This document shows, in pieces, positions 1 to 64,000 of a stretch of 64,000 bases of DNA. The stretch is from positions 6,250 through 70,249 of the forward strand of contig JAUIKM010000009.1 of the NCBI GenBank assembly GCA_030430495.1, read 5' to 3'. Source of the stretch: a bacterium (GTDB lineage: Bacteria > Bacteroidota > Ignavibacteria > Kapaibacteriales > UBA7675). Below the pieces are notes generated by a model, which had not been told where the DNA came from, made no database searches, and saw only the letters and a list, made by a program, of their open reading frames with translations. The translations under genes were made by a program, and so were the position numbers. Positions within the stretch are counted from its first letter, which is position 1, and every line of letters begins with the position of its first letter.

Positions 1-2017
1 CGTCGGCCGATACAAAGCAGGCGCCTTCATTAAACTCGTGCCCCTGCAGACCGTCATTGATATCAAAACTGCGAAAATGAGCACGCCGTTCACCGCCATC
101 GATCGCCTCATCATAGGTCAGCCGCGACAGCCCCTGATCGGCGCTGATCCAGTACGCGCCGGCAGAGTCGGCACAAATTGCGTACACGCGGTTGTTCACC
201 AGTCCATCCGCAACCGTAAATCGTTCAAATTGCGCCGAAACGCCGGCAACGCCGCCCGCATTGCGCAGACAGTTAACGCCGCCCCGATCAGTCCCGATCC
301 AGAGTGCCCCGGCGGCATCCACAAACATGTGGTTGATTGAGTTACTGCTCAAGCCGCGCGGATTATCCGGCTCCTGACGAAAGTTGACAAAGCGCTCGGT
401 TTCTGGCTGAAACAGGCTGACGCCGCCGTCGAGCGTGCCGACCCACAATCTTCCGGCGCTGTCGACGACCATCGCGGAAACAAAGTTGTTAACCAGTGAA
501 TTTTCATCGCCCGGCCGATTGAGAAATCGCCTGAACGTTTTGGACACCGGGTCAAACAGATTAAACCCTCCGCCGGAAGTACCGACCCAGAGCTTGCCGT
601 CAGCCCGTTCGATTACAGCGCGGACATCATTGTGGCTGATGCTCGTACTGTCGTCCGGCTTGTGTTTAAACTGCGAAAAATTATTGGTCGACGGGTCGAA
701 GATCATCAATCCTCCGCCGACGGAGCCCACCCACAGCTTGCCATCTTGGCGTGGACGTATCACGCGAATATCAGTATCATATGCGGAAAGATTTGAGTTT
801 TCAAACGAGACGCTGCCGCTGTAGGTCCACTCACCGCGTTGAAGTTTAAATCGGTTCAGACCGCTCCAGGCGCCGACCCACAGCGTCGTCTTGTCCGCCT
901 GCGCAATCGCGTGCACCTCATTGCGGTTAATACCTACCTGCCCCGTACCGCGCGCCCGGTAGTGCGCAAATTTCTGTTTAAGTTTATCGTATACATTCAG
1001 CCCGCCCCAGGTGCCCACCCACATGATGTCGGACGCTCCGCGGCAGATCGAACTGACGAGATCATCACTTAAACTCTGACGCTCCTCGGGGTCATTGTCA
1101 TACAGCCTGAACTCGGATGCTCCGCGATTGAGTATGGAAACGCCGCCGCCCCAGGTGCCAATCCACAAGCTGCCTTCAGCATCGTTTACAATGCTGCGAA
1201 TGTAGTCGTTCGACAGCGAGTTGGGCTTTTCCGGACGGTGGATAAAACGTCGCGAGTTTCCGTTGACGCGATCCAGCAGGAACACGCCGGCGCCCCAGGT
1301 CCCGACCCACAGCGAGTCGCCGACGGCATGGAGTGCGGAAATATCGTTAAGATGTGCAACGGCCTCCGCGCCTTCCATCAGTACGACCGGCTCAAAGGCG
1401 TCTGCATCCGCATTGTATCGCATCAGTCCATTTCCGCTGGTCCCCACCAGGATGTCGCCATCGACATCTTCGTACACCACCCAGACATTGTCTTCGCGTA
1501 CAACGGAATTGGAATCGGCCAACTGATAACGCGTAAACTCTTCTGTTAAACGATTCAGCCGGCACACGCCGCCGCCCCAGGTCCCGACCCACAAGTTGCC
1601 CTTGCGATCTTCACAAATTGTTCGCACGTCGTCGGAACTGATACTCGACGCGTTCCCGGCATTGTGGCGGTATGCGGTAAAACGCCCCGAACCCCGATTC
1701 AGTTTGTTTAAGCCGCCGCCCCAGGTGGCGATATACAGCACGCTGTCGCTCGTTTCATACACGGCCCACACCCGGCTGTTACTCAGGCTGGCGGGATCTT
1801 TGGGATCGTGATTAAACTCGCGAAATTCGTAGCCGTTGTACAGGTTTAATCCGTTGTTGGTCCCGATCCAGATGAACCTGCGGTTGTCCTGTACAATGCA
1901 GTTGATCTGGCTTTGGGAAATCCCCTGATCCCACGAAATTCTTTCGAACTTCACCTGGGCATGCAGCGACGCGGTCGCACATGTTAACACGGCGATTAAA
2001 CAGAGCGGCAATCTCAT
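1..2017 (-). CDS. Periplasmic sensor protein with at least 10 two-component-regulator-propeller repeats (PF07494-like). Partial: the 3' end runs off the window start.
   Basis: The ATG at 2017..2015 opens a minus-strand frame that I translated without stops down to position 1. The track does not list it because no stop falls inside the window. The translation starts MRLPLCLIAVLTCATASLHAQ (a signal peptide). It is followed by repeated W(V/I)GTWGGG(L/V) ... L(Y/F) ... D motifs: WIGTNNGL, YIATWGGGL, WVGTWGGGV, WVGTWGAGV, WIGTWGGGV, WVGTWGGL, WVGAWSGL, WVGSVGGGL, WVGTSGGG, WVGTLDGGV, WIGTDRGGV. These are the hallmark of sensor propeller repeats found in Bacteroidota hybrid two-component systems. 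Confidence 0.75.
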   Translation of the reverse strand, partial: MRLPLCLIAVLTCATASLHAQVKFERISWDQGISQSQINCIVQDNRRFIWIGTNNGLNLYNGYEFREFNHDPKDPASLSNSRVWAVYETSDSVLYIATWGGGLNKLNRGSGRFTAYRHNAGNASSISSDDVRTICEDRKGNLWVGTWGGGVCRLNRLTEEFTRYQLADSNSVVREDNVWVVYEDVDGDILVGTSGNGLMRYNADADAFEPVVLMEGAEAVAHLNDISALHAVGDSLWVGTWGAGVFLLDRVNGNSRRFIHRPEKPNSLSNDYIRSIVNDAEGSLWIGTWGGGVSILNRGASEFRLYDNDPEERQSLSDDLVSSICRGASDIMWVGTWGGLNVYDKLKQKFAHYRARGTGQVGINRNEVHAIAQADKTTLWVGAWSGLNRFKLQRGEWTYSGSVSFENSNLSAYDTDIRVIRPRQDGKLWVGSVGGGLMIFDPSTNNFSQFKHKPDDSTSISHNDVRAVIERADGKLWVGTSGGGFNLFDPVSKTFRRFLNRPGDENSLVNNFVSAMVVDSAGRLWVGTLDGGVSLFQPETERFVNFRQEPDNPRGLSSNSINHMFVDAAGALWIGTDRGGVNCLRNAGGVAGVSAQFERFTVADGLVNNRVYAICADSAGAYWISADQGLSRLTYDEAIDGGERRAHFRSFDINDGLQGHEFNEGACFVSAD

Positions 2018-2314
2018 CAAACGGCTGACCGCAATTGATCGCGGGGTCGGCATAATCCTGTTCCCTCTTGGTTCGGTGTAGCAGGCCGCGGAACGGCCGG
2101 TGGAAAATACGACAATCCCGATAGCCGCCCAACAGCCCGACACTCGGCAGGGCGGGACGATCCCCGGCGGACGCTCTTCCGGTCGCCTTGCTCTCTGAAA
2201 CCTCTGCCTGATTTTCTTGTTTGTCAGCGTGTTTGCCGTCTCGCGTCCACATCATGTCGACCGGCGCGAAGCGGCGAATGCCCCGGCAATTCCCGTTCAT
2301 CGCTCCTGAACCGC

Positions 2315-2557
2315 CGTTCAACCAGATTTTCCCCACCGCTCAGTTTTTTCGCCATGGATTTCAGGCCAACAGACCTTAGAATGGACAGAAAGCGGGCAGG
2401 CACGTGCATTCGGCCCGCCGATAAGCAGCTGAGCGCGACGGCGCCGAGCCGCTGAATCCGGGAACCCTGGCGGGGGCGAGCGGACGGAGAGCCTGTGCAC
2501 GGAAAATTTTCAGGCGTGGTGGTGGAGGGTAACGGGTGGGCCCAAAGATTCATCGCA
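2315..2557. repeat. Copy A of a 243-bp tandemly duplicated non-coding element (candidate structured RNA or regulatory module).
   Basis: Position-by-position alignment with 2761..3003 gives about 95% identity, with equal length and the same orientation. The track ORFs 2224..2553 and 2625..3233 merely read through the two copies. Internal GC-rich stems include GCGGGCAGGCACGUGCAUUCGGCCCGC and GGGUGGGCCC. Confidence 0.7.
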
Positions 2558-2760
2558 GGAGTGCGCCCAATTCATCAGCACATTGGCTGATTGCCGACTC
2601 GGATCACTTTTTACATGGTTCTGCCTAAATGAGAGCTTGCCTCAAAGCACACAACACTCTCCCGTGAACATGGCCGCAATCTGTGCCAAGGCCGCCCGAA
2701 TCGGGAGTAGTGCCGGCAGGTGAATCAATGCCGGTCGGCCGGTCATGACAATCCAACGAC

Positions 2761-3003
2761 CGTTCAACCAGGTTTTCCCCACCGCTCAGTTTTTTCGCCA
2801 TGGATTTCAGGCCAACAGACCGTAGTATGGACTGAAAGCGGGCAGGCACGTGCATTCGGCCCGCCGATAAGCAGCTGAGCGCGACGGCGCCGAGCGGCTG
2901 AATCCGGGAACCCTGGCGGGGACGAACGGACGGAGAGCCTGTGCACGGAAAATTTTCAGGCGTGGTGGTGGAGGGTAACGGGTGGGCCCAAAGATTCATC
3001 GCA
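2761..3003. repeat. Copy B of the 243-bp element, 203 bp downstream of copy A.
   Basis: See copy A. There are about a dozen substitutions and no indels. Both copies lie between the propeller sensor gene (minus strand) and the lipoprotein gene (plus strand). Confidence 0.7.
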
Positions 3004-3698
3004 AAAATGCGCTCAAATCTTAGTCTCAAGAACTTGAATACTGCTTCTCCTGGTTTCTGAAACCTGCACAGCCTCGGGATTTGCACAATTGGCGACCTCG
3101 AGTCCCATTCGCCTGGGCGCGCGCACCTTGGGCCGCGCCTCATTCCGCCCGCTGCATGCGACTCGGTTAGTCCGCAATTGTGAGACTCGAACCCATCTTC
3201 CATTCCTCTAACCGATCGCTGCACGACGAACAAAAATGGATTGCAAAAGGCGATGTGAGCAGCGCCTGGTCTGGTAGTGGAGAATACTTGAGGCCCGGGC
3301 GATTTTTTTCACGCCGACGAGTCTCAAATCGCAGCGGAATATTGTTAATAAAAGTGCGTTCTTCGGAACGTCGTAAAATTAGAGATGGACTTAAGCGCCT
3401 GCAACATATAATGTATCAATGACCGGTTTCGATCTATGCCTGACAAACATTAACTGATAGTCGCAACAATCAAATCTCCACACCGCCCGGCCGGGCCGGA
3501 CTTAAACAACCGCGCAGTAATCTCAATAGCCCGAACTACATCTATTCGCACTGCGGCTGCTGATTGTTTTACACCGCAACCATTCGTACTTTTGTCCGTT
3601 GGCGTTTCCAATGACCCGGCAGTCTTCCGGCAAACACCAATTGAAATTTGCGCCAGAGTTCCCGGCCTGTCGGCGTGTTAAAACGCGGAGGCAAACAC

Positions 3699-4412
3699 AT
3701 GCGCTCATTCAAGTACATCCTCGTGCTGCTCGCACTTGCGGCGGGTATGCAATCCTGTCATTTCAACTACCTTGAATCAAAAAACAGCGACCGCTACGGC
3801 ATCACGGCTTACGTCGATCCGGCCTACTATTCGCAGACCTTTGACGCGATCGCGGTGTACAGCGACAGCAGCGACTTACAATGGCGGCGCATCATCGAGA
3901 CCAAAACGCTGGAGACGCTGCACAAAAACGGCGTGCGTGCATTCTCCGGTTCGCGTTTGGTTCCGCCCACGCGACAATGGACGCGCACGGAAGGCGACAG
4001 CATCCTGCGGCTGGCGGGAGTGAACGCCGTCCTCCTATTCGACGTTGAAGTCGACTCGACAACCACGGAAGTATTTGTGCCCTTAACAACCAGCTCCAAA
4101 ACACGCGAGGAAAACAAACGCACCCAAAGCAGCGCCAGGCAGGATACCACCGGTGCCAAACCGCAACGCAACAGTGAAAAAGGTGTGCGTGAGGAGTGGA
4201 CCGTTGTCGAGAAAAAAGGCGGCTACATGAAAACAGAAGTGACGCGACACTACAACATTCGCGCGCGCCTTGTTGATGTTCGCAACGGCGCCGTGGCCTG
4301 GGTTGGACACTATTCGAGCAACAATGACAACTACCTGGACGACTTCACCTGGCGCGTGGCCAATCAGCTGATGATGGATGAGCTGGTGTTCAGAAGAGTC
4401 AGGCAGGATTAA
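3699..4412 (+). CDS. Hypothetical secreted protein or lipoprotein.
   Basis: GGAGG sits 8 nt upstream of the ATG at 3699. The N-terminus is MRSFKYILVLLALAAGMQSC, a signal peptide with a Cys at the cleavage region. The track ORF is 3648..4412. No recognisable catalytic motifs. Confidence 0.5.
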   Translation: MRSFKYILVLLALAAGMQSCHFNYLESKNSDRYGITAYVDPAYYSQTFDAIAVYSDSSDLQWRRIIETKTLETLHKNGVRAFSGSRLVPPTRQWTRTEGDSILRLAGVNAVLLFDVEVDSTTTEVFVPLTTSSKTREENKRTQSSARQDTTGAKPQRNSEKGVREEWTVVEKKGGYMKTEVTRHYNIRARLVDVRNGAVAWVGHYSSNNDNYLDDFTWRVANQLMMDELVFRRVRQD

Positions 4413-4735
4413 CAAAACGCCGAACTTAAACAACCATAATGGCGGAAGGCGGAGAATACAGCATCCCCGCCTCCCGCCCGAGTGAATCGGCGCACCGCTA
4501 CCGGCGCAGCGGCGCACCGCTCCGAACTATGTGCCGCCTGCTCCTGATTTCACCGCAATCCGTCACGCAACGTCGGAGAATCGTCCCGTGAATTGAATGA
4601 CCGGGAGATGAACAAACAGGCAACATGGTTACAATCGGGCGGGCGCATGCAGGCAAATACCGACCGCAACCGGGCGGACGAGATCCGTGCCGGCGGACAC
4701 ATACTGAGATCGGGCCAGGTTAAAACTCACGGCGG

Positions 4736-6073
4736 TTAACGAATTTCTCTGCGCAGTACGTCGACAAGCAACTGCAAGTCGGCTGTTGAAGTACAATACA
4801 TCGGCGCAATTCGAATGGCATTCAGCCCGTGCTCGCCGACAAAACGAAGGCGGATGCCGTCGCGCTCCGATAAAACGCGCAGTAAATCACGCGGATCGAT
4901 CGCATCGTTTAAAATCTGGAAAGTAACGATTGAAGCGCTGTCCGCCTCGGTCAGCGGTGTTAACAGTTTCAGGCCGGTTATCTGCAGGAGATTCTGTTTC
5001 AGGAATTCCGCCAGAAAGGCGCCGCGCCTGGCAATGTTTTCAAGGCCGATGGATTCCGCCAGATCTGCGGCGGCCGCCAGCGCTTCGAAAGCCGCACAGT
5101 TATACGTGCCGACCTCCACCGCACGCGCCTTGTTAAGCGGTGTAAAATCGGCTTCTTCCAATGAATAACTGGCGTCCGCGTACGCACCGGCCAGCGGCGT
5201 CGACCACACGTCCAGCAATTCACGGCGCACATACAGAATACCCGTCCCGGTGGGACCGTACAACCACTTGTGCCCCGAACTAGCGTAAAAATCACATCCG
5301 AGTTCGCGCAGGTTGACGTAGAACATTCCCGGCGGATGCGCTCCGTCAACAACACTTAAACAACCATGCGTGCGGCAGAGCGCGCTGATCGCTTTTATCG
5401 GCATGCGATAACCGGTTGTGCAGGTCACGTGCGAAACCATGACAAGCCGCGTTTGCGGCGTCAACAGCGCCTGCACGGCGTTCAGCGTCGCCTCCGCCGT
5501 ATCGCCCGGTTCAAACAGGCGGATGCGGCATCCGATGTCCTGCGCCCGTTTTATCCAGATCATGGCGCCGCCCGGATGTTCATGCGTGCTCATGATAATT
5601 TCATCGTCGGCCTTTAACGCCAGCCCGTTGGCAATCAGGTTCATGGCCGATGTTGTGCCGGCCGTAAACGCCAGTTCATCGTCGTCGCAGCCCAGGAACG
5701 TCGCCATTCGCCCGCGCGCCGTCTTCATTCGTTTGCGCTGCTCTTCCCCCGCTTCGGCAATCTCCAGTTCGGCGCGCTGCCTGGTCTGCAACGCCGGCCA
5801 GGACGCCGGCCCGAATCCGCCGCTGTTTAAGTAAATCCTGTCGTCGCGCAGCGGAAACAGACTGCGCAGCGACGTCCACGCCCGTTCGTCGGCGGCGTCG
5901 GACACCAGCTCCGTCAAAGGCTCGACGTCGGCCGCCGGTTCCGTCAGAATGCCGTCGGCGGACTGCTGTGCCGCCCCCTGCAATGCGCCCGTAAAACTGC
6001 CGAGGCCCAAAGCCACGGTCGCCGCGCCGCCCATTCGCAGAAAAGCGCGTCTCTCCTCCTGTCTGCTGCCCAT
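4736..6073 (-). CDS. Class V aminotransferase-fold PLP enzyme (cysteine desulfurase / SufS-IscS-like) with a twin-arginine (Tat) signal peptide.
   Basis: The SGHKWLYGPTGTGILYVRRELLD motif matches the PLP-lysine region of class V / SufS-type enzymes. The N-terminus from the internal start is MGSRQEERRAFLRMGGAATVALGLG, containing an RRxFL Tat motif. GGGAGG lies 6 nt upstream of that ATG at 6073. The track ORF extends to 6157. Confidence 0.7.
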   Translation of the reverse strand: MGSRQEERRAFLRMGGAATVALGLGSFTGALQGAAQQSADGILTEPAADVEPLTELVSDAADERAWTSLRSLFPLRDDRIYLNSGGFGPASWPALQTRQRAELEIAEAGEEQRKRMKTARGRMATFLGCDDDELAFTAGTTSAMNLIANGLALKADDEIIMSTHEHPGGAMIWIKRAQDIGCRIRLFEPGDTAEATLNAVQALLTPQTRLVMVSHVTCTTGYRMPIKAISALCRTHGCLSVVDGAHPPGMFYVNLRELGCDFYASSGHKWLYGPTGTGILYVRRELLDVWSTPLAGAYADASYSLEEADFTPLNKARAVEVGTYNCAAFEALAAAADLAESIGLENIARRGAFLAEFLKQNLLQITGLKLLTPLTEADSASIVTFQILNDAIDPRDLLRVLSERDGIRLRFVGEHGLNAIRIAPMYCTSTADLQLLVDVLRREIR

Positions 6074-6560
6074 AGTGTCCCTCCCCGGCGCACCGCTGCG
6101 CGCCCGTCCAAACTGAGTCCCGGAAAATTTGCGGGGCATTCCGCCCTCCGCGTACATCTACCCCGGCCTGTGGCAGTTGCGCCGTCATTCCGACGCTTAC
6201 ACCGCCCATCCACCCGATTGACTGTACACCGTGCCATATCGACGATCTCACGTGCGAAGTTCTCGCCGACACCGAATCGCGAGCCGCAGCCGATCCGCCT
6301 GCAAAAATAGTCCCTGCACCGCAATATCGCCCATTCGGCCTCTCTACCGCCGCACAACACGGCCGGATTTCCGGCGCATCCGTAAAAATAATTTGCAGGT
6401 CAACCTCGGTTCGCATAGATTTGCAGGCGTCAACCAAATGGTTAAACCCTTTGATTTACCCTTTTGGTTAGTCGCCGGGATTGAAACACGCAGTCCCCGG
6501 AACAGAAGTGCGGCTTCGCCGCATTTGTCCGAAGTCCATGAGCATAACAGAGGTCCGCCA

Positions 6561-7241
6561 ATGAACAGCAATAGGTCAAACGTGCCGCAGGGCGGTCGCG
6601 AGTCCTCCGATCTGCCCGCGCAGAGTCCGCAGGCGAACCGCGAGTCGGAAACCGAGCAGCGCATCCTCGACGCCGCGCGCCAGGTCTTCATCCTGAACGG
6701 ATTTTCCGGCGCGCGCATGCAGGCCATCGCCGACAAAGCCGGTATCAACAAAGCCATGCTGCACTACTACTACCGCAATAAACAGAAGCTGTTCGACGCG
6801 GTGTTTACCGAAGCGCTCGGCAAAATCCTGCACGTCGTTTTTGCCATCGTCGAATCCGACGCGCCGCTCGACGACAAGATTCCGCTCTTCTTCAACGAAT
6901 ACATCGGCATCCTGCAGCGGCATCCGCACATGCCCGCATTTGTCGTCAACGAAGTCAATCAGAACGGCAACTGGCTGCCGGAAATATTCAAAAAACACGG
7001 CGTCCACAAGCCGAAAAAACTCCTGCAGCAGTTTGCCGAGATCTACCAGCAGCCCGAACTTGATTGCCCGCGCCCCGAACATCTGATGGTCAACATGTTG
7101 GGCCTGGCGCTGTTTCCCTTCCTTGCCGCACCCCTGCTCAAACGCGTGCTGAATATGGACGACGCGGATTTTGCCGCGTTCCTGGAGGAACGCAAGACGC
7201 ATCTGCCCGCATTTTTCCAACAAGCCATCAAAACAACATGA
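6561..7241 (+). CDS. TetR/AcrR-family transcriptional regulator.
   Basis: The helix-turn-helix region RILDAARQVFILNGFSGARMQAIADKAGINKAMLHYYYRNKQKLF is typical of TetR. AGAGG precedes the ATG at 6561. The track ORF started at 6231 with a non-protein-like, R-rich extension. The stop overlaps the next gene's start (ATGA). Confidence 0.85.
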   Translation: MNSNRSNVPQGGRESSDLPAQSPQANRESETEQRILDAARQVFILNGFSGARMQAIADKAGINKAMLHYYYRNKQKLFDAVFTEALGKILHVVFAIVESDAPLDDKIPLFFNEYIGILQRHPHMPAFVVNEVNQNGNWLPEIFKKHGVHKPKKLLQQFAEIYQQPELDCPRPEHLMVNMLGLALFPFLAAPLLKRVLNMDDADFAAFLEERKTHLPAFFQQAIKTT

Positions 7242-8485
7242 AAACCTTCACCTGCCTGTGCCTGTTGCTGGCGGCCGGCGTTTTGCAGGCCCGCGATCTG
7301 AACATTCGCAGCGCCTGGAATCTGGCCGAACAGCATCACCCGCGCGCAGTCGAGTTTAACCTCTCGGACTCCGTCTACGCCCTCAAAGCGGAAAACATCG
7401 AAACCGTCTGGTTGCCGCTCCTGCTGCTCAATGCACGCGCCACATGGCAGTCGGAAACGGCCGAAATTGACGTTCCGCTGCCGGGAGTCGACATTCCCTC
7501 ACCGCCGCAGACCAATTACTCCATCGGCCTGCAACTGCGCCAGACACTGTACGACGGCGGACGCAGCAGCGCGCTCGGCGAGATCAACGCAGCCGAGGCC
7601 GAGGTTGAAGACCTGAAAATTGCCCAGGCGATTTATCGCATCCGCGCGGACGTCAACACCTGGTTTTTCCAGTGTTTAAGTCTGCAGGAAGATGCGGCCA
7701 TCCTGGATACACAGCTCGCACTGTTAAACGACAAACTGCGCGAGATGCGCGCGCGCCTGGCGCAGGGCGTCGTCACGCCCGATCTGATCGACCAGTTAAC
7801 CGCCGACGCCCTGCGCCTGCAGACGCGACGCATCGGCCTGCGCCATCAGCGCCGGATCGCCTTGCAACGGCTCTCGGTCTACCTGGGCCAAAACGTCGAC
7901 ACCAACACGCGTTTAAGTGCCGATCTGGCGGCCGACACCTTAAACAAACTGCGACCGGAGCAACGCCTCTTTGCCGCGCAGACGCAACGCCTGCGCGAGG
8001 CCGAAACCATCCTCGCCGCAAATCTCCGCCCGACGGTCGAGGTCTTCGGCGACGCGGCATTCGGACGGCCGGGCTACAACGTGTTTGCCGAAGACCCGCA
8101 CCTCTACGCCCTTTTCGGCATACAGCTGAATTGGAAGCTCCGGGACTGGGGACGCGCCGACCGCGAGCGCGGCGCCTTGCAGCTTCAGCAGGAAATGGTC
8201 GCCTCACAACGACTGGAGTTTGAGCGCGAACGCAGCCTGGCGATGCGCGATGTCCTGACAGGTATCGCGGCCGTCGACGAACAGATGGAACTCGACAAAA
8301 ACGTCGTTGAACTGCGGCGCAACATCACGACGCGGAGCGCTCGCAGACTGGACCAGGGAGTCGTCAACGCACACGACTATCTGGCCGATATCCGCGCTCT
8401 GGAAACCGCACAACTTGAGTTTAACCGTCGCCGCGTGGAACGCGAACGCCTGCTGGCGACGCTTCACTTTCTGGCAGGAGAATAA
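7238..8485 (+). CDS. TolC-family outer membrane efflux protein.
   Basis: Signal peptide MKTFTCLCLLLAAGVLQA. Coiled-coil and beta-barrel repeat organisation, with the typical two-repeat TolC/OEP architecture. Translationally coupled to the upstream TetR and the downstream HlyD. Confidence 0.8.
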   Translation: MKTFTCLCLLLAAGVLQARDLNIRSAWNLAEQHHPRAVEFNLSDSVYALKAENIETVWLPLLLLNARATWQSETAEIDVPLPGVDIPSPPQTNYSIGLQLRQTLYDGGRSSALGEINAAEAEVEDLKIAQAIYRIRADVNTWFFQCLSLQEDAAILDTQLALLNDKLREMRARLAQGVVTPDLIDQLTADALRLQTRRIGLRHQRRIALQRLSVYLGQNVDTNTRLSADLAADTLNKLRPEQRLFAAQTQRLREAETILAANLRPTVEVFGDAAFGRPGYNVFAEDPHLYALFGIQLNWKLRDWGRADRERGALQLQQEMVASQRLEFERERSLAMRDVLTGIAAVDEQMELDKNVVELRRNITTRSARRLDQGVVNAHDYLADIRALETAQLEFNRRRVERERLLATLHFLAGE

Positions 8486-8487
8486 TC

Positions 8488-9387: not shown

Positions 9388-9389
9388 AT

Positions 9390-11076: not shown

Positions 11077-11081
11077 AACGC

Positions 11082-54636: not shown

Positions 54637-54717
54637 AACGGGACGCGTGGAGCGGCGAACAGGCTCCGGAAATTTTTTCAGCGGCGGCAACAGCCGCCCG
54701 GTTTTGATGCAGCACTT

Positions 54718-56226: not shown

Positions 56227-56317
56227 CGAGCACGCAAAGGCGCCGACGTCTTCACCTGGTTAACAGGGTGTGGAACGCGCGCCTTGACACTTCCTCTTTT
56301 GCGCATTTTAAACAGCC

Positions 56318-56412
56318 TCTTTTGTTTGTCACCGGGTTTGAAGCCGGAAGACTTCGGGGCTGTTAACAGACTCGCAGGTTTGGAGCTTAAAACTCGCTGA
56401 CAAACAAGAGGG
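56318..56412. mobile_element. MITE/REP-like element with imperfect about-16-bp terminal inverted repeats of CCTCTT(TT)GTTTGTCA.
   Basis: The left end is CCTCTTTTGTTTGTCACCGGGTTTGAAG. The right end is GCTGACAAACAAGAGG, which is the reverse complement of CCTCTTGTTTGTCAGC. The left arm matches the right arm of the 13388..13592 element. Confidence 0.5.
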
Positions 56413-56570
56413 AAAAGCAAGCCGCCCGCAGAGCGGAGGCGAAGCGCTCAAACCTCAGACAATCAGCAATACCGATTCAATCAAACCTTAAACACATCGG
56501 CAAACGGCAGATCCGGACCGCTTAAACAACGGCCCGGGCAAGTGGTGAACGCGGCAACAATCAGAGATAA

Positions 56571-56990
56571 TCAGGCGGCCTGGCGGTACTGCTCGGCATA
56601 GCGCTGAATCTGGGCCAGCAGGTCCTCCAGCCCGGTCGTGTGGTTGGCCGACTTAAACGCATCCATGTCCAGCTGCTGCACAAAATTCGGCGGTGAATCC
56701 AGAATCTCCTGCGGCGAACGGCTCGAATAAATGCGCATTAACATCGCAATAATGCCGCGCATCTGCATTGAGTCGCTGTAACATTCAAATTCGAGTTTGC
56801 CGTCGACGAAGTTAACATCGTGCCAGATAACCGTCTGGCAACTGACGAGGGTGCGTTCGGGTGTTTTTTTCTCTTCGGGGAACGGCGGCAGACTGCGCCC
56901 GAGCCTGACCATGTAACGAAAGCGCGCCTCAAAGTTTTCGAGGGCGTTAAACTCTTCCACAATCTGTTGTTGTACGTCGTTACAGGTCAT
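56571..56990 (-). CDS. sufE: SufE-family cysteine desulfuration / sulfur acceptor protein.
   Basis: 139 aa. LVSCQTVIWHDVNFVDGKLEFECYSDSMQMRGIIAML matches the SufE C-x-S-x-V-W core with a conserved Cys. Confidence 0.75.
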   Translation of the reverse strand: MTCNDVQQQIVEEFNALENFEARFRYMVRLGRSLPPFPEEKKTPERTLVSCQTVIWHDVNFVDGKLEFECYSDSMQMRGIIAMLMRIYSSRSPQEILDSPPNFVQQLDMDAFKSANHTTGLEDLLAQIQRYAEQYRQAA

Positions 56991-57137
56991 TGCTCTTTCT
57001 GATAATGGTTAAACAACGCGGCCAGGTCTGCGCCGACTCGTACGCAGGCCACAGGTACATCCGCCGAAACGGGCGGACAAATTACGGAATTTTCGGGAGA
57101 TGAACACGGTGACGTTCCGACGCGTCGGACGCTGCGC

Positions 57138-58775
57138 TCAGAAGTCTTCAAATGCAAATGCCAGGCTGAAATTGTGCGCCGCCGCGCCGTTGACGTTGTC
57201 GAGCCGGTAAACCGCGTGCACGTTAAAACCGCGAATAAACTCCCAGCCGGCCGCCAGCCCGAGTGCAAAGCGGCGTTCGACGTCGCCGTCCAGAAAAGGA
57301 CTGATTTCCGAGTCCTCGCTGCGGCGCGCCTGCAGCACATCGCCGCCGACATTTTTGATCAGCGTTACGCCGTCGGCCGCGTAGATATTGCGTCCGTGGC
57401 GACGGAAGGAAGCCTCGACGGTGACGGGATAACGACCGCCGTACCACCAGCGCATACGCGCCGCCAGCTGATCCGAGTTGGGCGGCAGAAAACCGCCGAG
57501 CTGAACCTGGTCATTTGTGATGGAATTCTGCACGTTGAAGTGGCTGTAGGTGTAGGGCCGCACGCGGCTGTACTCCAGCGCGGCGTCGAGCGGCAGGCGT
57601 GGAGCGAACATCAGGCCGACGTTCCAGGCGGTTTTGTTGCCGGAAAACTCATCGCCGATGCGGCCAAACTGCAGATCGTCCAGGAAAAAAGCGGCGCGCA
57701 GTTCCAGGCCGTCGAGCGGTCGAATCGTGGCGTCGAGGCCCAGGGCGCTGTTGTCGCGGTCGCGCAGCGAGTGTTCGATCGACTTGAAAAAGCTGAGCGG
57801 GTTCAAGTAGGCCAGGTCGAGGTTGCGGTCGCTGTACATCACCTGCTCGGTGAAGGAGACCTGGCCCCAGCCGGCGCGCAGCGCAAAGCGGTGGTACGCC
57901 ATGTACTTGGCCGGAATCAGCGCTTCGGGCCCAAACTGAAAACCGGTCTGCGGGCCGCCGACGAGCGAGGCGTGCGCAAAACGATAGGCGAAGTGTTCGA
58001 AATCGGCCTCAACGCTGAGTGCGTCCATCGGCGGCGCAAGATTGCCGATAAAAATGCGGTTGAAGTAACCCGCTCCGCTGAGCCGCCGCATGCGCGAGAT
58101 TGAAACGCCGAACCAGTCGCGCGCAAATCGCACATGCGACTCGGCGAAGTCAAAGTCGCTGTCCAGGTCGCCGAATTTGACGTTGGCGGACAGGCGCGGA
58201 TCTTCGAGCGCCAGGGACTTCTCACCTGAAATCGCCGCGCCGTTGGTGACCTGCAGGTAAAACCCGAGCATGTCGTCGACACTGCCGTGGAAACGCAGGC
58301 CGCCCTGCCCCAGCAGGACGCTGCGCGAGGAATCGGCGCTCTGCATGCGCTGCTCCACCGCTCCGAGCGGCTGCAGAAACATCCGCAGGCGGTCCGTACT
58401 GTCGTAGTAGACTGATTTTTCGCTGTCGCTGAAAAGACCGTCAAAAAAGAGGTCCTGCTGGTCGCCGTGCGCAAAGATGGCGGCGCGGCGCGATTCCGTC
58501 AGACCAAACTCGCGCTCAAACTGTTCGAGCAGACTGAGTTCGGCGGCATCCAGCCGGGTGGCTTCGGCACGCAGCGTCCGCAGCGCGGCGCTCACATGCC
58601 CGCGCGGCAGCGGCAGTTCCGCCAGTGAAAAATTACCGAGCAGACCGCGCGCCTGCATGCGCTCCAGCCAGGGATAGACCGGGTGTTCAATCGGCAGGTA
58701 CTCCACCTGCGCCGTCGCGGACGCGATCGTCAGGAGCGCCAGGACCGGCAGCAGCAGAATGCGAAGTCGGGTCAT
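57138..58775 (-). CDS. Outer-membrane beta-barrel protein, probably capsule-assembly Wzi family.
   Basis: Signal peptide MTRLRILLLPVLALLTIASATA. An early HPVYPWLERMQARGLL motif resembles the Wzi N-terminal helix. The C-terminus ends ...LAFAFEDF (aromatic-terminal OMP signature). It lies adjacent to a Wza-like exporter. The family call is from memory and tentative. Confidence 0.5.
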   Translation of the reverse strand: MTRLRILLLPVLALLTIASATAQVEYLPIEHPVYPWLERMQARGLLGNFSLAELPLPRGHVSAALRTLRAEATRLDAAELSLLEQFEREFGLTESRRAAIFAHGDQQDLFFDGLFSDSEKSVYYDSTDRLRMFLQPLGAVEQRMQSADSSRSVLLGQGGLRFHGSVDDMLGFYLQVTNGAAISGEKSLALEDPRLSANVKFGDLDSDFDFAESHVRFARDWFGVSISRMRRLSGAGYFNRIFIGNLAPPMDALSVEADFEHFAYRFAHASLVGGPQTGFQFGPEALIPAKYMAYHRFALRAGWGQVSFTEQVMYSDRNLDLAYLNPLSFFKSIEHSLRDRDNSALGLDATIRPLDGLELRAAFFLDDLQFGRIGDEFSGNKTAWNVGLMFAPRLPLDAALEYSRVRPYTYSHFNVQNSITNDQVQLGGFLPPNSDQLAARMRWWYGGRYPVTVEASFRRHGRNIYAADGVTLIKNVGGDVLQARRSEDSEISPFLDGDVERRFALGLAAGWEFIRGFNVHAVYRLDNVNGAAAHNFSLAFAFEDF

Positions 58776-60586
58776 CAGCGGTTCAGCCAGTTGATGAGCG
58801 TGGTCGCCACAACCACGGCAGCGGACACGAGGTTGACGTAGAAGGAGTATTCCTGCGCCTCCACGCCCGGCGCAAACTGCGGGTCGGCCGGAACGTATAT
58901 GATGTCGCCGGACTCGACCACGATGTCGTCAAAGTTGTCTTCGATCCAGATATTGGTTCGTCCCTTGATCACCGCCGCGCGTCCCATGTCCGCCGATTCG
59001 GCCGCGCCGCCGGCTTGCCGCAGATACCAGGCGGCCGTGCGCCCCTCCACAAAACCGACGTAGCCGGGATTTGCGACGTGGCCGTAGACGTAGACATTCA
59101 TTGGGTTGCGCGGGATCACCAACACGTCGCCGTTCTGCATGGTGATGTTGTCCTGCTCGGAATTTTCCAGCAGGGCCGCGCCGACGTCGCAGGCGGCCAT
59201 CGAGCTGCGCAGCATATTGTGCATGCGGAAACGCGCGGTGTCGCCCAGGCCGAGCGTATAAAATTGCGTCAGGCGCACCTGGGTCTCTTCGGGCGTGTAG
59301 TGTTCCGCTCCCATGAAGTCGCGGCGCAACACGTATGCAAGCGGCAGATAGGCTTCCTCGTTGGTTCCGCCGGCCATTTCCACCAGATCTTTCAGGCGCG
59401 TCTCACCCGGTTGAATGACAAAGGTCCCCGGTTTTGCAACCATGCCGCTGACCGACGCGGTCACGACGCTTGCGGGCTCAAGAGCTGAGCGCTCAACGAC
59501 AATTTTTGCGCCGGCGGTGATGGGGCGATCGCCCTGACCGGACATGACCGCGTTCACGTCGATATTTTCGCGCGAGGCCGAGCCCGGCGCCAGGTAGTAC
59601 ACTTCGTTGGAGTCGGCGTGATCCGCGAGGCCGTAACCGGCGCGCAGCAGCAGCGAGAGGCTGTCGCCGCGGCGCCATGGAATAATGGCGGGGCGGCGCA
59701 CCGCTCCGGCAATCGAAACGGTCGGCGCTTCGGCCGGTTCAAAGGGAACAAAAATTTCATCGCCTTCGCGCAGCGTGGGGTCCTCTTCGGGACGGTTCAA
59801 CAGACGCGCGCGGATGTCGTCGGAAATATGCGAGGTGCCGTCCTTGTGGTAGACGACCGTATTGCGACGCAGCCATTCACAGAGGTAATTCTCGCCCAGT
59901 TCGGACTCTACCTTGGCATAGGCGCGGTCGCGCAAGGTGCGAATGAGCGGTTTGCCGCCGCCGCCGAGTGTGGTCTTTGGATCCTGATTGGCGTACTGCA
60001 CGGCCGTCGAGACGCGCATCGAAGCAGGCAGGGCGTACATGCGCGGATATTTGACGTTGCCGCCGATATCGACAAATACGGTGCGCGCTTTCAGCAGCGA
60101 CACCGCGACGCCCCAATTGGCATTGCGCTCGCGGTACAGCGCTTCGACCGTATCGCGCACTTCGGCCAGATTTCTATCCAGCACGGAAATGCGGCCGATG
60201 CGCGGCAGCATCAACATGCTTTCGGGCGAAATCATCAGCGGATACTCACCGGACAGCGTACCGACCAGTTGCAGCAGCAGCACGTCGCCGGGGCCGACCT
60301 GGTAGACCTCGGGGTCGACCACGTTGTCGGTCGGAAACGCATCGGTGTCGCTCGCCAGCAATTCGAGCGGACTCGCGCCGCTCTGCGCCGACACACCCGG
60401 GCCGGGCATGCCGTAGGAATCGTCGCTGCCACCGCCGAGACCGCCGGACTGGGCGTAGACTGCCGGACAGCAGCAAATCGCGATGAACAGAAGGAGTGCA
60501 TTAAGTCGAAGCGCGGCTCGCATCATAGGTCGGCGTTGCATCACAGAGATGCGCATGTTTGTACAGACAGAGGTTTGTTCAGTCAC
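58775..60586 (-). CDS. Polysaccharide export protein (Wza-like: Poly_export plus SLBB domains).
   Basis: Signal peptide. YQVGPGDVLLLQLVGTLSGEYPLMISPESMLMLPRIGRISVLDRNLAEVRDTV is the Poly_export motif. Multiple SLBB-like beta-grasp repeats follow. Confidence 0.75.
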   Translation of the reverse strand: MTEQTSVCTNMRISVMQRRPMMRAALRLNALLLFIAICCCPAVYAQSGGLGGGSDDSYGMPGPGVSAQSGASPLELLASDTDAFPTDNVVDPEVYQVGPGDVLLLQLVGTLSGEYPLMISPESMLMLPRIGRISVLDRNLAEVRDTVEALYRERNANWGVAVSLLKARTVFVDIGGNVKYPRMYALPASMRVSTAVQYANQDPKTTLGGGGKPLIRTLRDRAYAKVESELGENYLCEWLRRNTVVYHKDGTSHISDDIRARLLNRPEEDPTLREGDEIFVPFEPAEAPTVSIAGAVRRPAIIPWRRGDSLSLLLRAGYGLADHADSNEVYYLAPGSASRENIDVNAVMSGQGDRPITAGAKIVVERSALEPASVVTASVSGMVAKPGTFVIQPGETRLKDLVEMAGGTNEEAYLPLAYVLRRDFMGAEHYTPEETQVRLTQFYTLGLGDTARFRMHNMLRSSMAACDVGAALLENSEQDNITMQNGDVLVIPRNPMNVYVYGHVANPGYVGFVEGRTAAWYLRQAGGAAESADMGRAAVIKGRTNIWIEDNFDDIVVESGDIIYVPADPQFAPGVEAQEYSFYVNLVSAAVVVATTLINWLNR

Positions 60587-61682
60587 GGAGAATCAGATCC
60601 AGATCGTTGGCGATGCGTTCGGCCGCACGCCCGTCCCAGAAGGGCGGAACCTCGGTCCCCTGCGGCGGATGCGCAAAGGTCTCGGCCAGGGCGGTTCGCA
60701 GCAGATCCACCTGCGGCGCAACCAGTCGATTGCTGCCGAGGGTAATTGTCGACGGGCGTTCCGTGCTCGTGCGCATGGTGACGCAGGGCACTTTCAACGC
60801 GGTCGTTTCTTCCTGGATGCCGCCGGAGTCCGTCAGCACGAGCGCGGCTTCGCGCATCAGCGCCGTAAAACGAACGGGCGACTGCGGCTCCAGGATGTGC
60901 AGGCGCGGATGATCTTCGATCATGGCCTGCATTCCGAATTTTTCGATGCGCGCCCGCGTGCGCGGATGCAGCGGCAGGACGACGTCGCGTTCGTCGGCCG
61001 TGTCGCGCAGCAGCTGCAGCAGACCGCGCAACTGTTCTTTGTCGTCGACATTGCTGGGGCGGTGCAGCGTCACCAACACGTACTCCCCCGCCGTCAGTCC
61101 CAACTCGGCGCGCAGCGGACAGGCGCGCGCCGCGTCGAGGATAAAAAACAGCGAGTCGATCATCGTGTTGCCGCGGAAAAAAATGCGCTCGCGCGGCCAG
61201 CCCTCGCGCAGCAGATTGTCCAGGCCGCTCTGTTCCGTCACAAAGGCGTAGTCGCAGACGGCGTCGATCGCCAGACGATTCAATTCTTCCGGCATCTCGC
61301 GATCGCCGGAGCGCAGGCCGGATTCAATGTGCACCAGCGGCACGTGCAGTTTGCGCGCCGTCAGGCCGCAAGCCAGGCTGGAATTGACGTCGCCCACGAC
61401 AATGACAAGGTCGGGTTTGTGCTCCTGCACAACGCCCTCAAACGCCATCATCACGCGCGCTGTCACTTCGGCATGACTGCCGGATCCAACGCCCAGAAAC
61501 ACGTCCGGTTCGGGTAGTTGATGTTCCTGAAAAAAAACATCCGACATGTTGACGTCATAGTGCTGCCCGGTGTGCACAATGACGTGCTGAATGCGATCGG
61601 CACAGGCTTGCAGCGCCCGGTGGATCGGCGCGACTTTCATGAAGTTGGGTCGCGCGCCGACGACCGAAATCACTTTTTTCAT
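60579..61682 (-). CDS. wecB: UDP-N-acetylglucosamine 2-epimerase (non-hydrolysing).
   Basis: MKKVISVVGARPNFMKVAPI...VHTGQHYD...DLVIVVGDVNSSLA...HIESGLRSGD. Full-length WecB. Confidence 0.9.
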   Translation of the reverse strand: MKKVISVVGARPNFMKVAPIHRALQACADRIQHVIVHTGQHYDVNMSDVFFQEHQLPEPDVFLGVGSGSHAEVTARVMMAFEGVVQEHKPDLVIVVGDVNSSLACGLTARKLHVPLVHIESGLRSGDREMPEELNRLAIDAVCDYAFVTEQSGLDNLLREGWPRERIFFRGNTMIDSLFFILDAARACPLRAELGLTAGEYVLVTLHRPSNVDDKEQLRGLLQLLRDTADERDVVLPLHPRTRARIEKFGMQAMIEDHPRLHILEPQSPVRFTALMREAALVLTDSGGIQEETTALKVPCVTMRTSTERPSTITLGSNRLVAPQVDLLRTALAETFAHPPQGTEVPPFWDGRAAERIANDLDLILRD

Positions 61683-63091
61683 TTGCCGTCTCCCAGCAGC
61701 ACCACTTTGGCCCGATCGGCTTCGGGGACGTTGCGGCAGGCATTGCGCGTGTCGATCACCACATTGCTGTTGGCGGCGATCATATCGTAGTCAAAGCTGC
61801 TGTGATCGGTCGTGATCACGCAGACGTCGTAGCCCTTGAGCACGTCCGGATCGATCGCCGGCAGCGAGTCTATCGTGCGGCCGTGAATGCGGATCGACGG
61901 CACGTAGGGATCGAAGTAGTTGATATTCGGGATGTCGTCCTCGTCCAGCAGCTCGATGACTTTGAGCGCCGGCGAGTGGCGCAGATCGTCCACGTCGCGC
62001 TTGAAGGCGACGCCCAGCAGCAGGATGCGAGCCTCGATGGTCGTCACCGGCTGGCGTGCAATCTCGCGCGTAATCATGTCGCGCACATAAAAGGGCATCG
62101 ACTCATTGACTTCGGCCGCCAGCGTGATAAAATTCGTCACGAAGTCGTCCTTGCGCGCCGCCCAGGAGAGGTAGTATGGATCGATCAGGATGCAGTGTCC
62201 GCCGATGCCCGGTCCGGGGAAAAAGGGCATAAAACCGAAAGGTTTGGTGGAGGCGGCTTCAATCGCCTCCCACACGTTGATGCCGCCCATGCGGTCGCAG
62301 AGCTGCGCCAGTTCGTTGACGAGCGCGATGTTGACGCTGCGGAAAATGTTCTCGAGCAGCTTGGACATCTCGGCGACTTTGGGGTTGGACACCGTCACAA
62401 CCTCTGCGATAATCAGCTCGTTGACTTCGGCCGCCAGTTTGGTGCACAGTTGCGTCACACCGCCGACCACGACGGGCGTATTGCCCGTGTTGAACCGCTG
62501 ATTGCCCGGATCGATGCGCTCGGGCGAAAAGGCCAGGAAAAAATTGCGGCCGACTTTTCTCTGCTCGTTTTCGAGCTGGGGCAGCACGTGCCCTTCGGTC
62601 GTGTTCGGAAAAGTCGTGCTTTTGAGAATCACCAGCTGGCCGAGCTGCATGTGCGCCGCGATATTGCCCGTAGCGCTCATGATATACTGGATATCCGGTT
62701 CTTTATTCGGTGTGAACGGCGTCGGAACGCAGATGTAGAGCACATCGCAACCGGCGAGCCGACTGAAGTCGTCCGTGGCGTCGAGCAGATTGTCCCGCAC
62801 CAGTTGACGCAACACGTCGCTGTCGACGTCCTGGATGTAGTTGTCGCCACGATTGATCGCCTGCGTTTTAGCGGCGTCGACGTCGAACCCCAGCACCTGG
62901 ATGCCGCGTTGACCAAACTCGACTGCCAGCGGCAGGCCGACATAGCCGAGCCCGATAATGCCGATTTTCAGCGTTCTGGCACTGATTTTCTCGCGCAGTT
63001 GCGTCGCAAGCGCCGTCGCCTCCGGATGTGCGTTCCGCTCGTTGTAGCCGGGCGCATCTCCCCGTGAACCATGCAGTTGTTGTGACGCCAT
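61679..63091 (-). CDS. Nucleotide-sugar dehydrogenase (UDP-ManNAc / UDP-GlcNAc 6-dehydrogenase, WecC/TviB-like).
   Basis: NAD-binding KIGIIGLGYVGLPLAVEF. The catalytic Cys region and the C-terminal UDP-binding domain are present. Overlaps wecB by 4 nt. Confidence 0.85.
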   Translation of the reverse strand: MASQQLHGSRGDAPGYNERNAHPEATALATQLREKISARTLKIGIIGLGYVGLPLAVEFGQRGIQVLGFDVDAAKTQAINRGDNYIQDVDSDVLRQLVRDNLLDATDDFSRLAGCDVLYICVPTPFTPNKEPDIQYIMSATGNIAAHMQLGQLVILKSTTFPNTTEGHVLPQLENEQRKVGRNFFLAFSPERIDPGNQRFNTGNTPVVVGGVTQLCTKLAAEVNELIIAEVVTVSNPKVAEMSKLLENIFRSVNIALVNELAQLCDRMGGINVWEAIEAASTKPFGFMPFFPGPGIGGHCILIDPYYLSWAARKDDFVTNFITLAAEVNESMPFYVRDMITREIARQPVTTIEARILLLGVAFKRDVDDLRHSPALKVIELLDEDDIPNINYFDPYVPSIRIHGRTIDSLPAIDPDVLKGYDVCVITTDHSSFDYDMIAANSNVVIDTRNACRNVPEADRAKVVLLGDGK

Positions 63092-63100
63092 AGTCTTTAT

Positions 63101-64000
63101 TCAGAGCTTGTAATGTTGTCGATAATACTCGCGGTACGCGCCGGACCGCACGTGCGCACACCAATCGGCGTTGGCGCGGTACCATTCGATCGTAGACCGC
63201 AAACCCGCTTCAAAGCTGTGCCGCGGTTGCCAGCCGAGATTGCTCCGCAGAGCGCTCGCATCCACCGAATAGCGGAAATCGTGCCCGGGTCTGTCCGCAA
63301 CAAAGCGGATTAAACGTTCCGATTTGCCTAAAATTTGAAGGATGGCGCGAACAACGTCCATGTTCGCCTGTTCGCCGTCGGCGCCGATGTTATACACTTC
63401 ACCGGCATTTGCGTTGCAATACACCGCCCAGACGGCGCTGCAATGGTCGTCCACGTGAATCCAGTCGCGCACATTCTCGCCGTCGCCATACACCGGCAGC
63501 GGCTCGTCGTCCAGCGCATTGAGGATCATCAGAGGAATGAGTTTTTCGGGGAATTGACGCGGGCCGTAGTTGTTGGAGCAGCGCGTAATCACAGTGTCCA
63601 TGCCGTAGGTGTGGTGGTAGGCGCGCACCATCAGGTCGGCGCTCGTCTTGGACGCCGCGTAGGGTGAATTGGGCCGCAGCTGTGAGTGTTCCGTAAAAGT
63701 TCCGTCGCGGCCGAGCGTGCCGTACACTTCGTCGGTGGAAATCTGCAGAAAACGACGAATGCCGTGGGCGCGGGCGCACTCAAGCAGCGCCAACGTGCCG
63801 GAAACATTAGTGTCGACAAAAATCGCCGGGCCGCTGATCGAACGGTCCACGTGCGTTTCCGCCGCAAAGTTGATAATGCCGTCGAAGTCCTGTTCACCGA
63901 CCGTTTTGTTCAGCGCCGCAGCGTCGCGGATGTCGCCGTGGACAAAAGTGTAGCGCGGGTCGGATTCCAGATCGCTGAGATTTTCCAGGTTGCCGGCGTA
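63101..64000 (-). CDS. rfbB: dTDP-glucose 4,6-dehydratase (partial: the 5' end is beyond the window end).
   Basis: HFAAETHVDRSISGPAIFVDTNV...TDEVYG...PYAASKTSADLMVRAYHHTYG...C-terminal ...YYRQHYKL. The frame stays open from 63850 up to position 64000 (AGNLENLSDLESDPRYTFVHGDIRD...). Confidence 0.85.
   Translation of the reverse strand, partial: YAGNLENLSDLESDPRYTFVHGDIRDAAALNKTVGEQDFDGIINFAAETHVDRSISGPAIFVDTNVSGTLALLECARAHGIRRFLQISTDEVYGTLGRDGTFTEHSQLRPNSPYAASKTSADLMVRAYHHTYGMDTVITRCSNNYGPRQFPEKLIPLMILNALDDEPLPVYGDGENVRDWIHVDDHCSAVWAVYCNANAGEVYNIGADGEQANMDVVRAILQILGKSERLIRFVADRPGHDFRYSVDASALRSNLGWQPRHSFEAGLRSTIEWYRANADWCAHVRSGAYREYYRQHYKL

Follow-up and report, generated by a model that had tools for sequence, protein, structure and literature searches.

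Introduction

Lineage-specific over-abundant DNA words are rare windows onto the machines that read bulk chromosomal DNA, and those known, among them the uptake signal sequence (USS) of the Pasteurellaceae, the DNA uptake sequence (DUS) of the Neisseriaceae, HIP1 (GCGATCGC) of the cyanobacteria and Chi, all come from a few cultured groups. Here, the hexamer TTAAAC (GTTTAA on the complementary strand) is examined in 64,000 nucleotides of contig JAUIKM010000009.1 (GenBank assembly GCA_030430495.1, positions 6,250 to 70,249), a stretch from an uncultured bacterium of the Fibrobacterota-Chlorobiota-Bacteroidota (FCB) group that is referred to, at its full length, as the window. The word, an AT-rich and asymmetric hexamer, is short, moderately enriched and very young; it resembles the known over-abundant words and fails the defining features of each family (USS/DUS, HIP1 and Chi). 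The explanation that we favour, tentatively and at a little under an even chance, is that TTAAAC is a recognition word acting at the DNA level, of the kind of USS, DUS and HIP1, kept by selection or by recombination-coupled drive.

The enrichment of USS and DUS is about 100-fold or more, and their intergenic copies lie mostly downstream of genes, with a spacing that is more even than random. Like TTAAAC, these are lineage-specific short words over-represented on both strands, with copies inside genes in several frames that shape the choice of codons and of some residues, and with an uneven regional density. However, their cores span 9-12 bp and carry a flanking consensus, whereas TTAAAC spans 6-7 bp without flanks, and they occur family-wide with dialects, whereas TTAAAC is found in two sister species only. 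For the organism carrying TTAAAC, neither competence nor an uptake receptor is known. Uptake words accumulate by point substitution and fixation bias (PMC1939737, PMC2817400).

HIP1 is over-represented 15-300-fold (PMC5861425), and its function, long unknown, has since been connected with transformation or nucleoid structure (PMC5861425, PMC4390886, bioRxiv 10.1101/2024.09.10.611283). Its likeness to TTAAAC lies in its abundance in all frames and in spacers, its non-random distribution along the chromosome and its conservation between genomes above matched expectation, which for HIP1 argues for selection over neutral replenishment (PMC5861425). HIP1 is, however, a GC-rich palindromic octamer found phylum-wide and associated with two orphan methylases, whereas TTAAAC is an AT-rich asymmetric hexamer, enriched 3-6-fold in one genus-level clade and with no known enzyme.

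Chi and the FtsK-orienting polar sequences (KOPS), short words of 5-8 bp that DNA-processing machines read, are likewise over-represented and specific to a species; they are strongly co-oriented with replication, whereas TTAAAC is divided 57:45 between the strands. In E. coli, very-short-patch (VSP) repair causes a loss of CTAG and a gain of CCWGG, which is strand-symmetric and needs no reader. A bias of this type resembles the TTAAAC pattern in its strand-symmetric action on DNA, and the window also nearly lacks CTAG (3 copies), but it predicts a matching depleted precursor, which TTAAAC does not have, and it predicts neither blocks of density nor short-range exclusion. The RAATTY methylation mark used in Campylobacter jejuni transformation is a precedent for a 6-bp self-mark; it differs in being abundant through base composition alone and in acting by methylation via a known enzyme, CtsM. 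The targets of restriction-modification (R-M) systems are avoided or at most neutral in their hosts, whereas TTAAAC is enriched.

Results and Discussion

An asymmetric hexamer is the over-represented word

The GC content of the window is 57.7%, lower than the approximately 63% given in the sequence-only reading that preceded this analysis, and gene calling yields 44 genes with 92% coding sequence. Expected counts were obtained from 100 dinucleotide-preserving shuffles and from a synonymous-codon shuffle within each gene, which keeps the protein sequence and the gene's own codon usage. TTAAAC/GTTTAA is present in 102 copies, against 18.17±4.76 (maximum 33) in the dinucleotide shuffles, a 5.6-fold excess, and is the highest-ranked hexamer by z-score under a first-order Markov model (z 19). 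In coding sequence, 80 copies are observed against 27.6 in the codon shuffle (z 10-12), again the top value among all hexamers. The over-representation proposed from the sequence is therefore borne out in part, for this hexamer; under neither null is the observed-to-expected ratio (O/E) near 1, and amino-acid composition alone does not account for the excess. TTAACA/TGTTAA is a weaker second word (53 copies against 18.5).

The tetramer TTAA, on which the sequence-only reading had centred, shows a much smaller excess. Its 180 copies (1 per 356 bp) are separated by a median gap of 162 bp, and only 27% of the gaps fall in the range of 60-150 bp that had been claimed for the whole window; that figure is much overstated and fits the first 15 kb only (1 per 197 bp). 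The expected number is 128 from base composition (1 per 500 bp, not 1 per 700-800 bp; O/E 1.4), 126 from a first-order and 105 from a second-order Markov model, and inside genes 141 copies are observed against 117±8 in the codon shuffle (O/E 1.2, z 2.9), so that the excess amounts to 1.2-1.4-fold and not to 5-10-fold. TTAA had also been said to lie almost always in a short list of contexts, which is too strong for 95 of 180 copies; 97 are in TTAAAC/GTTTAA and 124 when GTTAAC is added. The nine coordinates offered as examples all hold the words given for them, within 5 bp.

Among the 16 possible TTAA+NN words, only those ending in AC, CA and GT are enriched, each about 2.9-fold, and those ending in AT, TT, TA, TG and AG are depleted. 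C follows TTAAA in 74% of cases, against 24% after other NAAA contexts. In a position matrix of the 102 oriented sites (±10 bp), less than 0.1 bit is found outside the hexamer except at +1 (0.25 bit), where a weak A is present at 45 of 102 sites, and at +2 (0.11 bit); an extended or bipartite motif is thereby ruled out, the weak A at +1 being the only trace of a flanking consensus. The palindromes GTT(T)AA(A)C, proposed as the unit, do not exceed the expectation from their sub-words under a fourth-order Markov model (GTTAAC 27 against 24.9; GTTTAAAC 5 against 5.0). TTAA with favoured flanks on both sides is seen about 50 times against about 51 expected for independent sides, as estimated from flank tallies, which suggests that the two flanks of TTAA vary independently. 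With the palindromes at the level of their sub-words and the flanks independent, the unit is the asymmetric hexamer TTAAAC. Its copies are as follows.

1-64000, 57 on the plus and 45 on the minus strand: all TTAAAC copies (the 102 compared with the dinucleotide shuffles).
664-671: GTTTAAAC, two overlapping opposed TTAAAC copies; four more at 10124, 22061, 46975 and 53792.

The pressure acts on the DNA

Within genes, where the sequence-only reading had seen the words in all three frames, the sense and antisense copies of TTAAAC number 42 and 38, and the word is in excess in all four stop-free frames: TTA-AAC, 16 observed against 2.8 expected; xTT-AAA-C, 26 against 8.9; xGT-TTA-A, 14 against 1.0; and xxG-TTT-AA, 24 against 15. 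The absolute excess is similar in each (9-17 sites). In non-coding DNA, 18 copies are present against 3.4 expected, an approximately 5-fold excess.

Use of the TTA codon depends on its context. TTA is indeed a disfavoured leucine codon, as had been noted (3.6% of Leu codons, 70 codons), and 52 of the 70 are followed by A. Its share among Leu codons is 29% before AAC and 53% before ACA, against 1.8-1.9% before codons starting with C or T and 0.3% before those starting with G. Forty-four of the 70 TTA codons lie inside one of four enriched words, and four of the 15 TAA stop codons lie in T-TAA-AC.

A cause at the level of protein or translation, such as amino-acid composition, repeated peptides or codon-pair preference, has some basis in the first gene of the window, a sensor with Reg_prop propeller repeats that carries 12 TTAAAC sites, many of them in G-L/F-N repeats (Gly-Leu-Asn among the repeated peptides). 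The order of amino acids also contributes a factor of about 1.3, since the expectation is 21.2 with codons permuted and 27.6 in the synonymous shuffle. However, the excess survives a fixed amino-acid sequence and per-gene codon usage, it is equal on the antisense strand, alike among frames and 5-fold in non-coding DNA, and many unrelated genes carry the word. Such a cause is refuted as the main one and is very improbable. Survival under the codon null, the symmetry of the strands, the use of all open frames and the excess in spacers support a pressure on the DNA itself and not on protein, as the sequence-only reading had argued; the slower divergence of the sites, described below, points the same way.

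Enrichment is confined to two sister species

A LepA scan of 185,579 species genomes, together with the type IX secretion sorting domains encoded in the window, assigns the window to the Ignavibacteriota, close to Kapaibacterium and Melioribacter. The closest, L001 (a metagenome-assembled genome, contig CAYULF010000011.1), has 98% LepA identity and approximately 91% nucleotide identity over collinear sequence; L084, a Logan contig of the same lineage, widens the overlap with the window to 32 kb. The nucleotide identity of approximately 91% indicates that L001 and L084 represent a sister species. O/E values in the window are 1.41 for TTAA and 6.6 for TTAAAC, and those in L001 are 1.32 and 4.7; L084 holds 42 TTAAAC sites in 15.7 kb, a density equal to that of the first dense block of the window. 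The next loci, L002-L046 (66-78% LepA identity), have TTAA O/E values of 0.04-0.64 in all but two low-GC loci and TTAAAC values of 0-0.97 in all. Compared with GC-matched relatives (21 loci, 396 kb), the window has 6.4 times as many TTAA and 21.5 times as many TTAAAC. With enrichment in the window and its sister only, and depletion in the next relatives (at most 78% LepA identity), TTAAAC is thus a recent, genus-level gain on a TTAA-purging background.

No intermediate relatives for polarising the changes are present in the collections searched. A metagenome scan with PALP, a pyridoxal-phosphate enzyme encoded in the window, gave a best match of only 37%; a protein search gave one match at 93%, from the sister species, and the next at 59%; and exact-protein look-ups returned short near-identical Logan contigs or no match. 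The record of L001 is labelled 'uncultured Hyphomicrobiales' despite the 98% amino-acid match in LepA, the 91% nucleotide match and the same gene order. This label is probably wrong, and several other loci look mislabelled in the same way (Patescibacteria, Thalassomonas).

Other words are also unusual. CTAA/TTAG (25 copies, O/E 0.07) and CTAG (O/E 0.01) are nearly absent from the window, mainly in coding sequence (10 against 82 in the synonymous shuffle) and mildly in spacers (15 against 25). The same depletion is common to nearly all the Ignavibacteriota and Bacteroidota loci fetched (L002-L079), and is therefore a trait separate from and older than the gain of TTAAAC. Relative to relatives of the same GC content, the window has more A/T and G/C runs (AAAA 3.3-fold, TAAA 4.2-fold, AATT 2.4-fold, GCGC 2-fold), and CCCC/GGGG is strongly depleted (z -10, codon null); short-range composition has changed generally, beyond TTAAAC. 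CTCGAG, ATCGAT, TGATCA and GATC stand at 0.11, 0.31, 0.42 and 0.58 times their frequency in relatives, which may reflect species-specific avoidance of restriction sites.

The low CTCGAG and ATCGAT values suggest R-M pressure, and TTAAAC could itself be the target of a DNA methyltransferase (orphan, Type IIS, Type III or BREX-like), enriched because its methylated sites would function in epigenetic control, in repair or as a self-mark. Motifs of Type III, Type IIG and BREX systems are typically short and asymmetric, as this 6-mer is. HIP1, moreover, is tied to its two orphan methylases (PMC4390886). Known R-M targets, however, are not enriched 3-6-fold in their hosts, and no methyltransferase gene is present in the window; literature searches returned nothing relevant on TTAAAC/GTTTAA as a methylation motif or on Ignavibacteria methylomes. 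We regard a methylation target as quite improbable.

Sites are conserved between the two species

TTAAAC has risen approximately 20-fold where relatives purge it and stands at an early, moderate stage, and the two sister genomes allow its gains and losses to be counted. The alignment of the two species comprises 32,008 columns at 91.3% identity, and hexamers from the same gene and the same frame served as matched controls. Of 59 sites in the window, the sister species retains 47 unchanged, whereas the matched hexamers give an expectation of 33.1±3.8 (p=0.0004). With sites defined in the window, TTAAAC has the highest excess conservation of 573 hexamer classes; TAAACA, which overlaps it, is second whichever species defines the sites. 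At third codon positions the divergence is 9.8% inside sites, compared with 18.3% overall and 24-26% for A- and T-ending codons, the fastest-evolving class, to which most third positions of sites belong. In non-coding DNA it is 5.6% inside sites and 17% overall. Divergence at the sites is about half that at matched positions. The same conservation argument was used for HIP1 by Xu et al. (PMC5861425).

At the 30 species-specific sites, the differences from TTAAAC are spread over all six positions, and those one step away show an ordinary transition:transversion ratio of 15:6. The commonest partner is TTGAAC (6 of 30). The 18 one-mismatch neighbours of TTAAAC total 360 copies against 353 expected, with TTGAAC at 0.91 and TCAAAC at 1.05, and the only depleted neighbours are the low-abundance TTAAAT, TTAAAG and CTAAAC. 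A hypermutable precursor is ruled out, as none of these neighbours is depleted to a degree that could account for the excess. The pattern fits ordinary point mutation together with a bias that keeps the word, whether selection, recombination-coupled drive or restoring repair, and not a mutational hotspot.

These data bear on a neutral explanation, in which a lineage-specific, context-dependent bias of mutation or mismatch repair creates or restores TTAAAC and no reader exists. Strand symmetry, the use of all frames, the presence in spacers and the restriction to one lineage would all be expected from it, and TTGAAC<->TTAAAC is the commonest single difference between the species. The many other words that are shifted relative to relatives (AAAA, GCGC and CCCC, above) indicate that general compositional forces have changed, and word-restoring repair would raise the apparent conservation of sites. 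On the other hand, no one-mismatch precursor is depleted sufficiently to be the source, gains and losses occur at all positions, and A/T third positions that generally diverge by 24-26% diverge by only 9.8% inside the word. The density also differs approximately 10-fold between adjacent gene blocks of near-identical codon usage and divergence, and neither the short-range exclusion nor the contrast between promoter and downstream spacers described in the next section is expected from mutation alone. Such a bias is unlikely, although it is a serious candidate; if it is the cause, it is an unusually specific one.

Arrangement of sites along the window

With the five overlapping GTTTAAAC pairs set aside, no two TTAAAC sites are 3-28 bp apart, against 6.3 pairs expected (p about 0.001), and seven gaps of 29-37 bp are present against 2.1 expected (p=0.005). 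TTAAAC ranks first of 204 similarly abundant hexamers on both measures, and 31 AT-rich control hexamers show neither effect (47 against 42; 16 against 15.8). The relative orientation of neighbouring sites is mixed. Given the small counts and the mixed orientation, this short-range pattern is suggestive only.

In non-coding DNA, TTAAAC is found preferentially downstream of genes: 12 sites lie in the 2,462 nt of convergent (3'-3') spacers (O/E 13.6) and 8 in the 1,133 nt of tandem spacers (O/E 23), compared with 2 sites in 2,994 nt of divergent, promoter-only spacers (O/E 2.1). No inverted-repeat terminator pairs are seen among the intergenic sites.

Over longer distances the density varies from block to block (chi-square p=3e-6), and the description of the words as pervasive was wrong: 51 of the 102 sites lie in the first 16 kb (13, 10, 15 and 13 per 4 kb). 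The local O/E per 4 kb is 9.6, 9.2, 15.1 and 13.3 over 1-16 kb, 2.4-3.6 over 16-44 kb, 9.6 over 44-48 kb, 1.3-2.0 over 48-56 kb, 6.0 over 56-60 kb (all six sites in 56.3-57.0 kb) and 1.7 over 60-64 kb. The density pattern of the sister species is the same. The main features are listed here.

1-14737: dense block 1, with 51 sites at 3.2 per kb and a local O/E of 9-15; its genes (Pfam) encode the Reg_prop sensor, an aminotransferase, a TetR-OEP-HlyD-ABC-ABC2 operon and PALP.
13693-14655, minus strand: PALP (pyridoxal-phosphate enzyme), the densest gene, 7 sites in 963 bp.
14498-14565: three TTAAAC at 31-bp steps (14498 plus, 14529 minus, 14560 minus), an example of the pile-up at 29-37 bp.
35256-35816: convergent spacer with 3 sites, an example of the preference for positions downstream of genes.
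43835-47435: dense block 2, with 11 sites, in genes for glycosyltransferases and in the convergent spacer 46162-46852 (O/E 9.6 for 44-48 kb).
47436-56307: sparse stretch of 8.9 kb with 3 copies, at 2 loci (local O/E 1.3-2).
56308-57014, plus strand: cluster of six sites, all on the plus strand, in the convergent spacer 56227-56570 and the SufE gene.
57015-64000: sparse stretch, 1 site in 7 kb.

The boundary of dense block 1 at 14.7 kb is abrupt: the gene at 14655-17801, beside PALP, has 2 sites in 3,147 bp. The last sparse stretch runs 4.4 kb past the right end of the window, with 1 more site, up to parB/parA. The blocks are not accounted for by divergence, with which density shows no correlation at codon positions 1+2 or 3 (Spearman p 0.53 and 0.28), by codon usage, which is nearly identical in site-rich and site-poor genes, by AT-rich words in general, since AAAA and AATT are uniform along the window, or by the GC content of third codon positions.

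The exclusion below 29 bp and the pile-up at about 31 bp, which corresponds to three helical turns, resemble the footprint of a protein. TTAAAC could accordingly be bound by an abundant protein that is associated with the nucleoid or structures the chromosome, its sites being selected for their density in chromosomal blocks and not for uptake. This proposal gives the best fit to the footprint-like spacing and the block-wise density, it agrees with the scarcity in promoter-only spacers and with the independence of orientation, and Xu et al. concluded that HIP1 has a role in nucleoid structure (PMC5861425). However, the mixed orientation of neighbouring sites indicates that there is no fixed architecture, the block edge at 14.7 kb falls abruptly at a gene boundary, unlike that of a chromosomal domain, the spacing result involves small numbers, and no candidate protein is known. 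We consider a nucleoid word improbable.

Possible recognition of TTAAAC as a self-signal

In the explanation that we favour, TTAAAC would be a genus-specific word read regardless of orientation, with TTAACA as a weaker relative. It would have accumulated on the TTAA-avoiding background of the lineage and would be kept at the DNA level by selection or by recombination-coupled drive; the reader would most likely be a sequence-specific double-stranded-DNA-binding protein. The observed parts of this scheme are the enrichment under the nulls, the action at the DNA level, the restriction to two sisters, the conservation, the short-range exclusion and the downstream preference. As to the process, a self-DNA recognition signal in DNA uptake or homologous recombination is favoured in view of the symmetry of the strands, the use of all frames, the downstream preference, the gain by substitution, the uneven density and the approximately 20-fold contrast with relatives. 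The narrower proposal that TTAAAC is a minimal, recently evolved 6-bp self-recognition signal for natural transformation or recombination, with approximately 20-fold discrimination against close relatives, has a rather low probability.

Several points weigh against a recognition word. The enrichment is modest, 3-6-fold, compared with about 100-fold or more for USS and DUS and 15-300-fold for HIP1, and the word is only 6-7 bp long with no flanking consensus. To our knowledge, competence has not been described in this uncultured lineage, and no uptake, recombination, methylation or nucleoid genes were found in the 64-kb window. Conservation is less pronounced if the sister species supplies the sites (47 of 65, z 2.6, rank 16 of 577), a word-restoring repair system would also make sites look conserved, and compensatory turnover does not reach significance (a gain within 30 bp for 2 of the 12 lost sites, against 0.48 expected; p=0.08). 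The significance of the spacing would fail correction for 204 tests had TTAAAC not been the word chosen beforehand, and the range of block-wise density (local O/E from 15 to 1.3) is not predicted in detail by a recognition-word model.

Two other types of word were rejected. One is a partition site of the parS type, with which a 6-mer present 1.6 times per kb does not agree. The other is a Chi- or KOPS-type word, which the 57:45 strand split contradicts, as it shows no skew while the GC skew keeps one sign (negative) from 1 to approximately 56 kb.

If TTAAAC is an uptake self-signal, it would be the first in the FCB group and shorter than any yet known. Should a reader protein exist, the word could show how such signals start, and it would offer an easy marker by which sequences could be binned and mobile elements assigned to this uncultured host. 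Whether the cause is a reader or a bias, the block-wise density is a concrete, testable puzzle.

Genes and other elements of the window

The genes of the window are of housekeeping and envelope types: the propeller sensor, the TetR-efflux-ABC operon, the pyridoxal-phosphate enzyme, two TMEM260-like proteins, three signal peptidases, LepA, DsbD, AccA and an exopolysaccharide cluster. Methyltransferase, restriction, Vsr and competence genes are absent from the 64 kb, and the window contains no Rfam matches and no tRNAs.

The seven PALP sites fall in frames 0, 1 and 2, and several coincide with lineage-specific residues such as Pro43. At PALP residues 41-43 (14527-14535), the Cys of an FKCEN motif, present in 13 of 13 distant homologues, is Pro in both sister species; the codons TTT-AAA-CCC create TTAAAC, and Cys would give the disfavoured TTAAAT. 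This link may be a coincidence and is an anecdote only. Protein-level pressure in PALP was considered and rejected, because 12 of 20 site residues match the homologue majority, which is about the gene-wide identity, and forced replacements are not clearly in excess.

A 265-nt direct repeat (2309-2573 and 2755-3019; 95% identity, 446 bp apart, no Rfam match) sits in a 1.5-kb gene-poor stretch, 2144-3647, between divergent genes. Only one TTAAAC is present there, and the stretch holds 6 of the window's 28 CTAA/TTAG/CTAG.

The region 19146-22274, a low-GC stretch (49-53%) of approximately 3 kb that is absent from the sister species, encodes two proteins with C-terminal sorting domains of the type IX secretion system (T9SS), one of which also has BNR/Sortilin repeats. 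The stretch, probably inserted recently, is less enriched in TTAAAC than the window on average. Two TMEM260-like paralogues (approximately 1,030 aa), which are putative protein O-mannosyltransferases, and three tandem signal-peptidase-I paralogues are encoded at 14655-17801, 22422-25493 and 25754-28584; the three signal-peptidase-I genes contain no TTAAAC.

Neither a DnaA-box cluster nor a parS match was found. A parB gene and a probable parA gene lie 1-4 kb past its right end (L085, 1-4460), and the cumulative GC skew has its minimum at approximately 54-56 kb; in light of these two features, the window may adjoin the replication origin.

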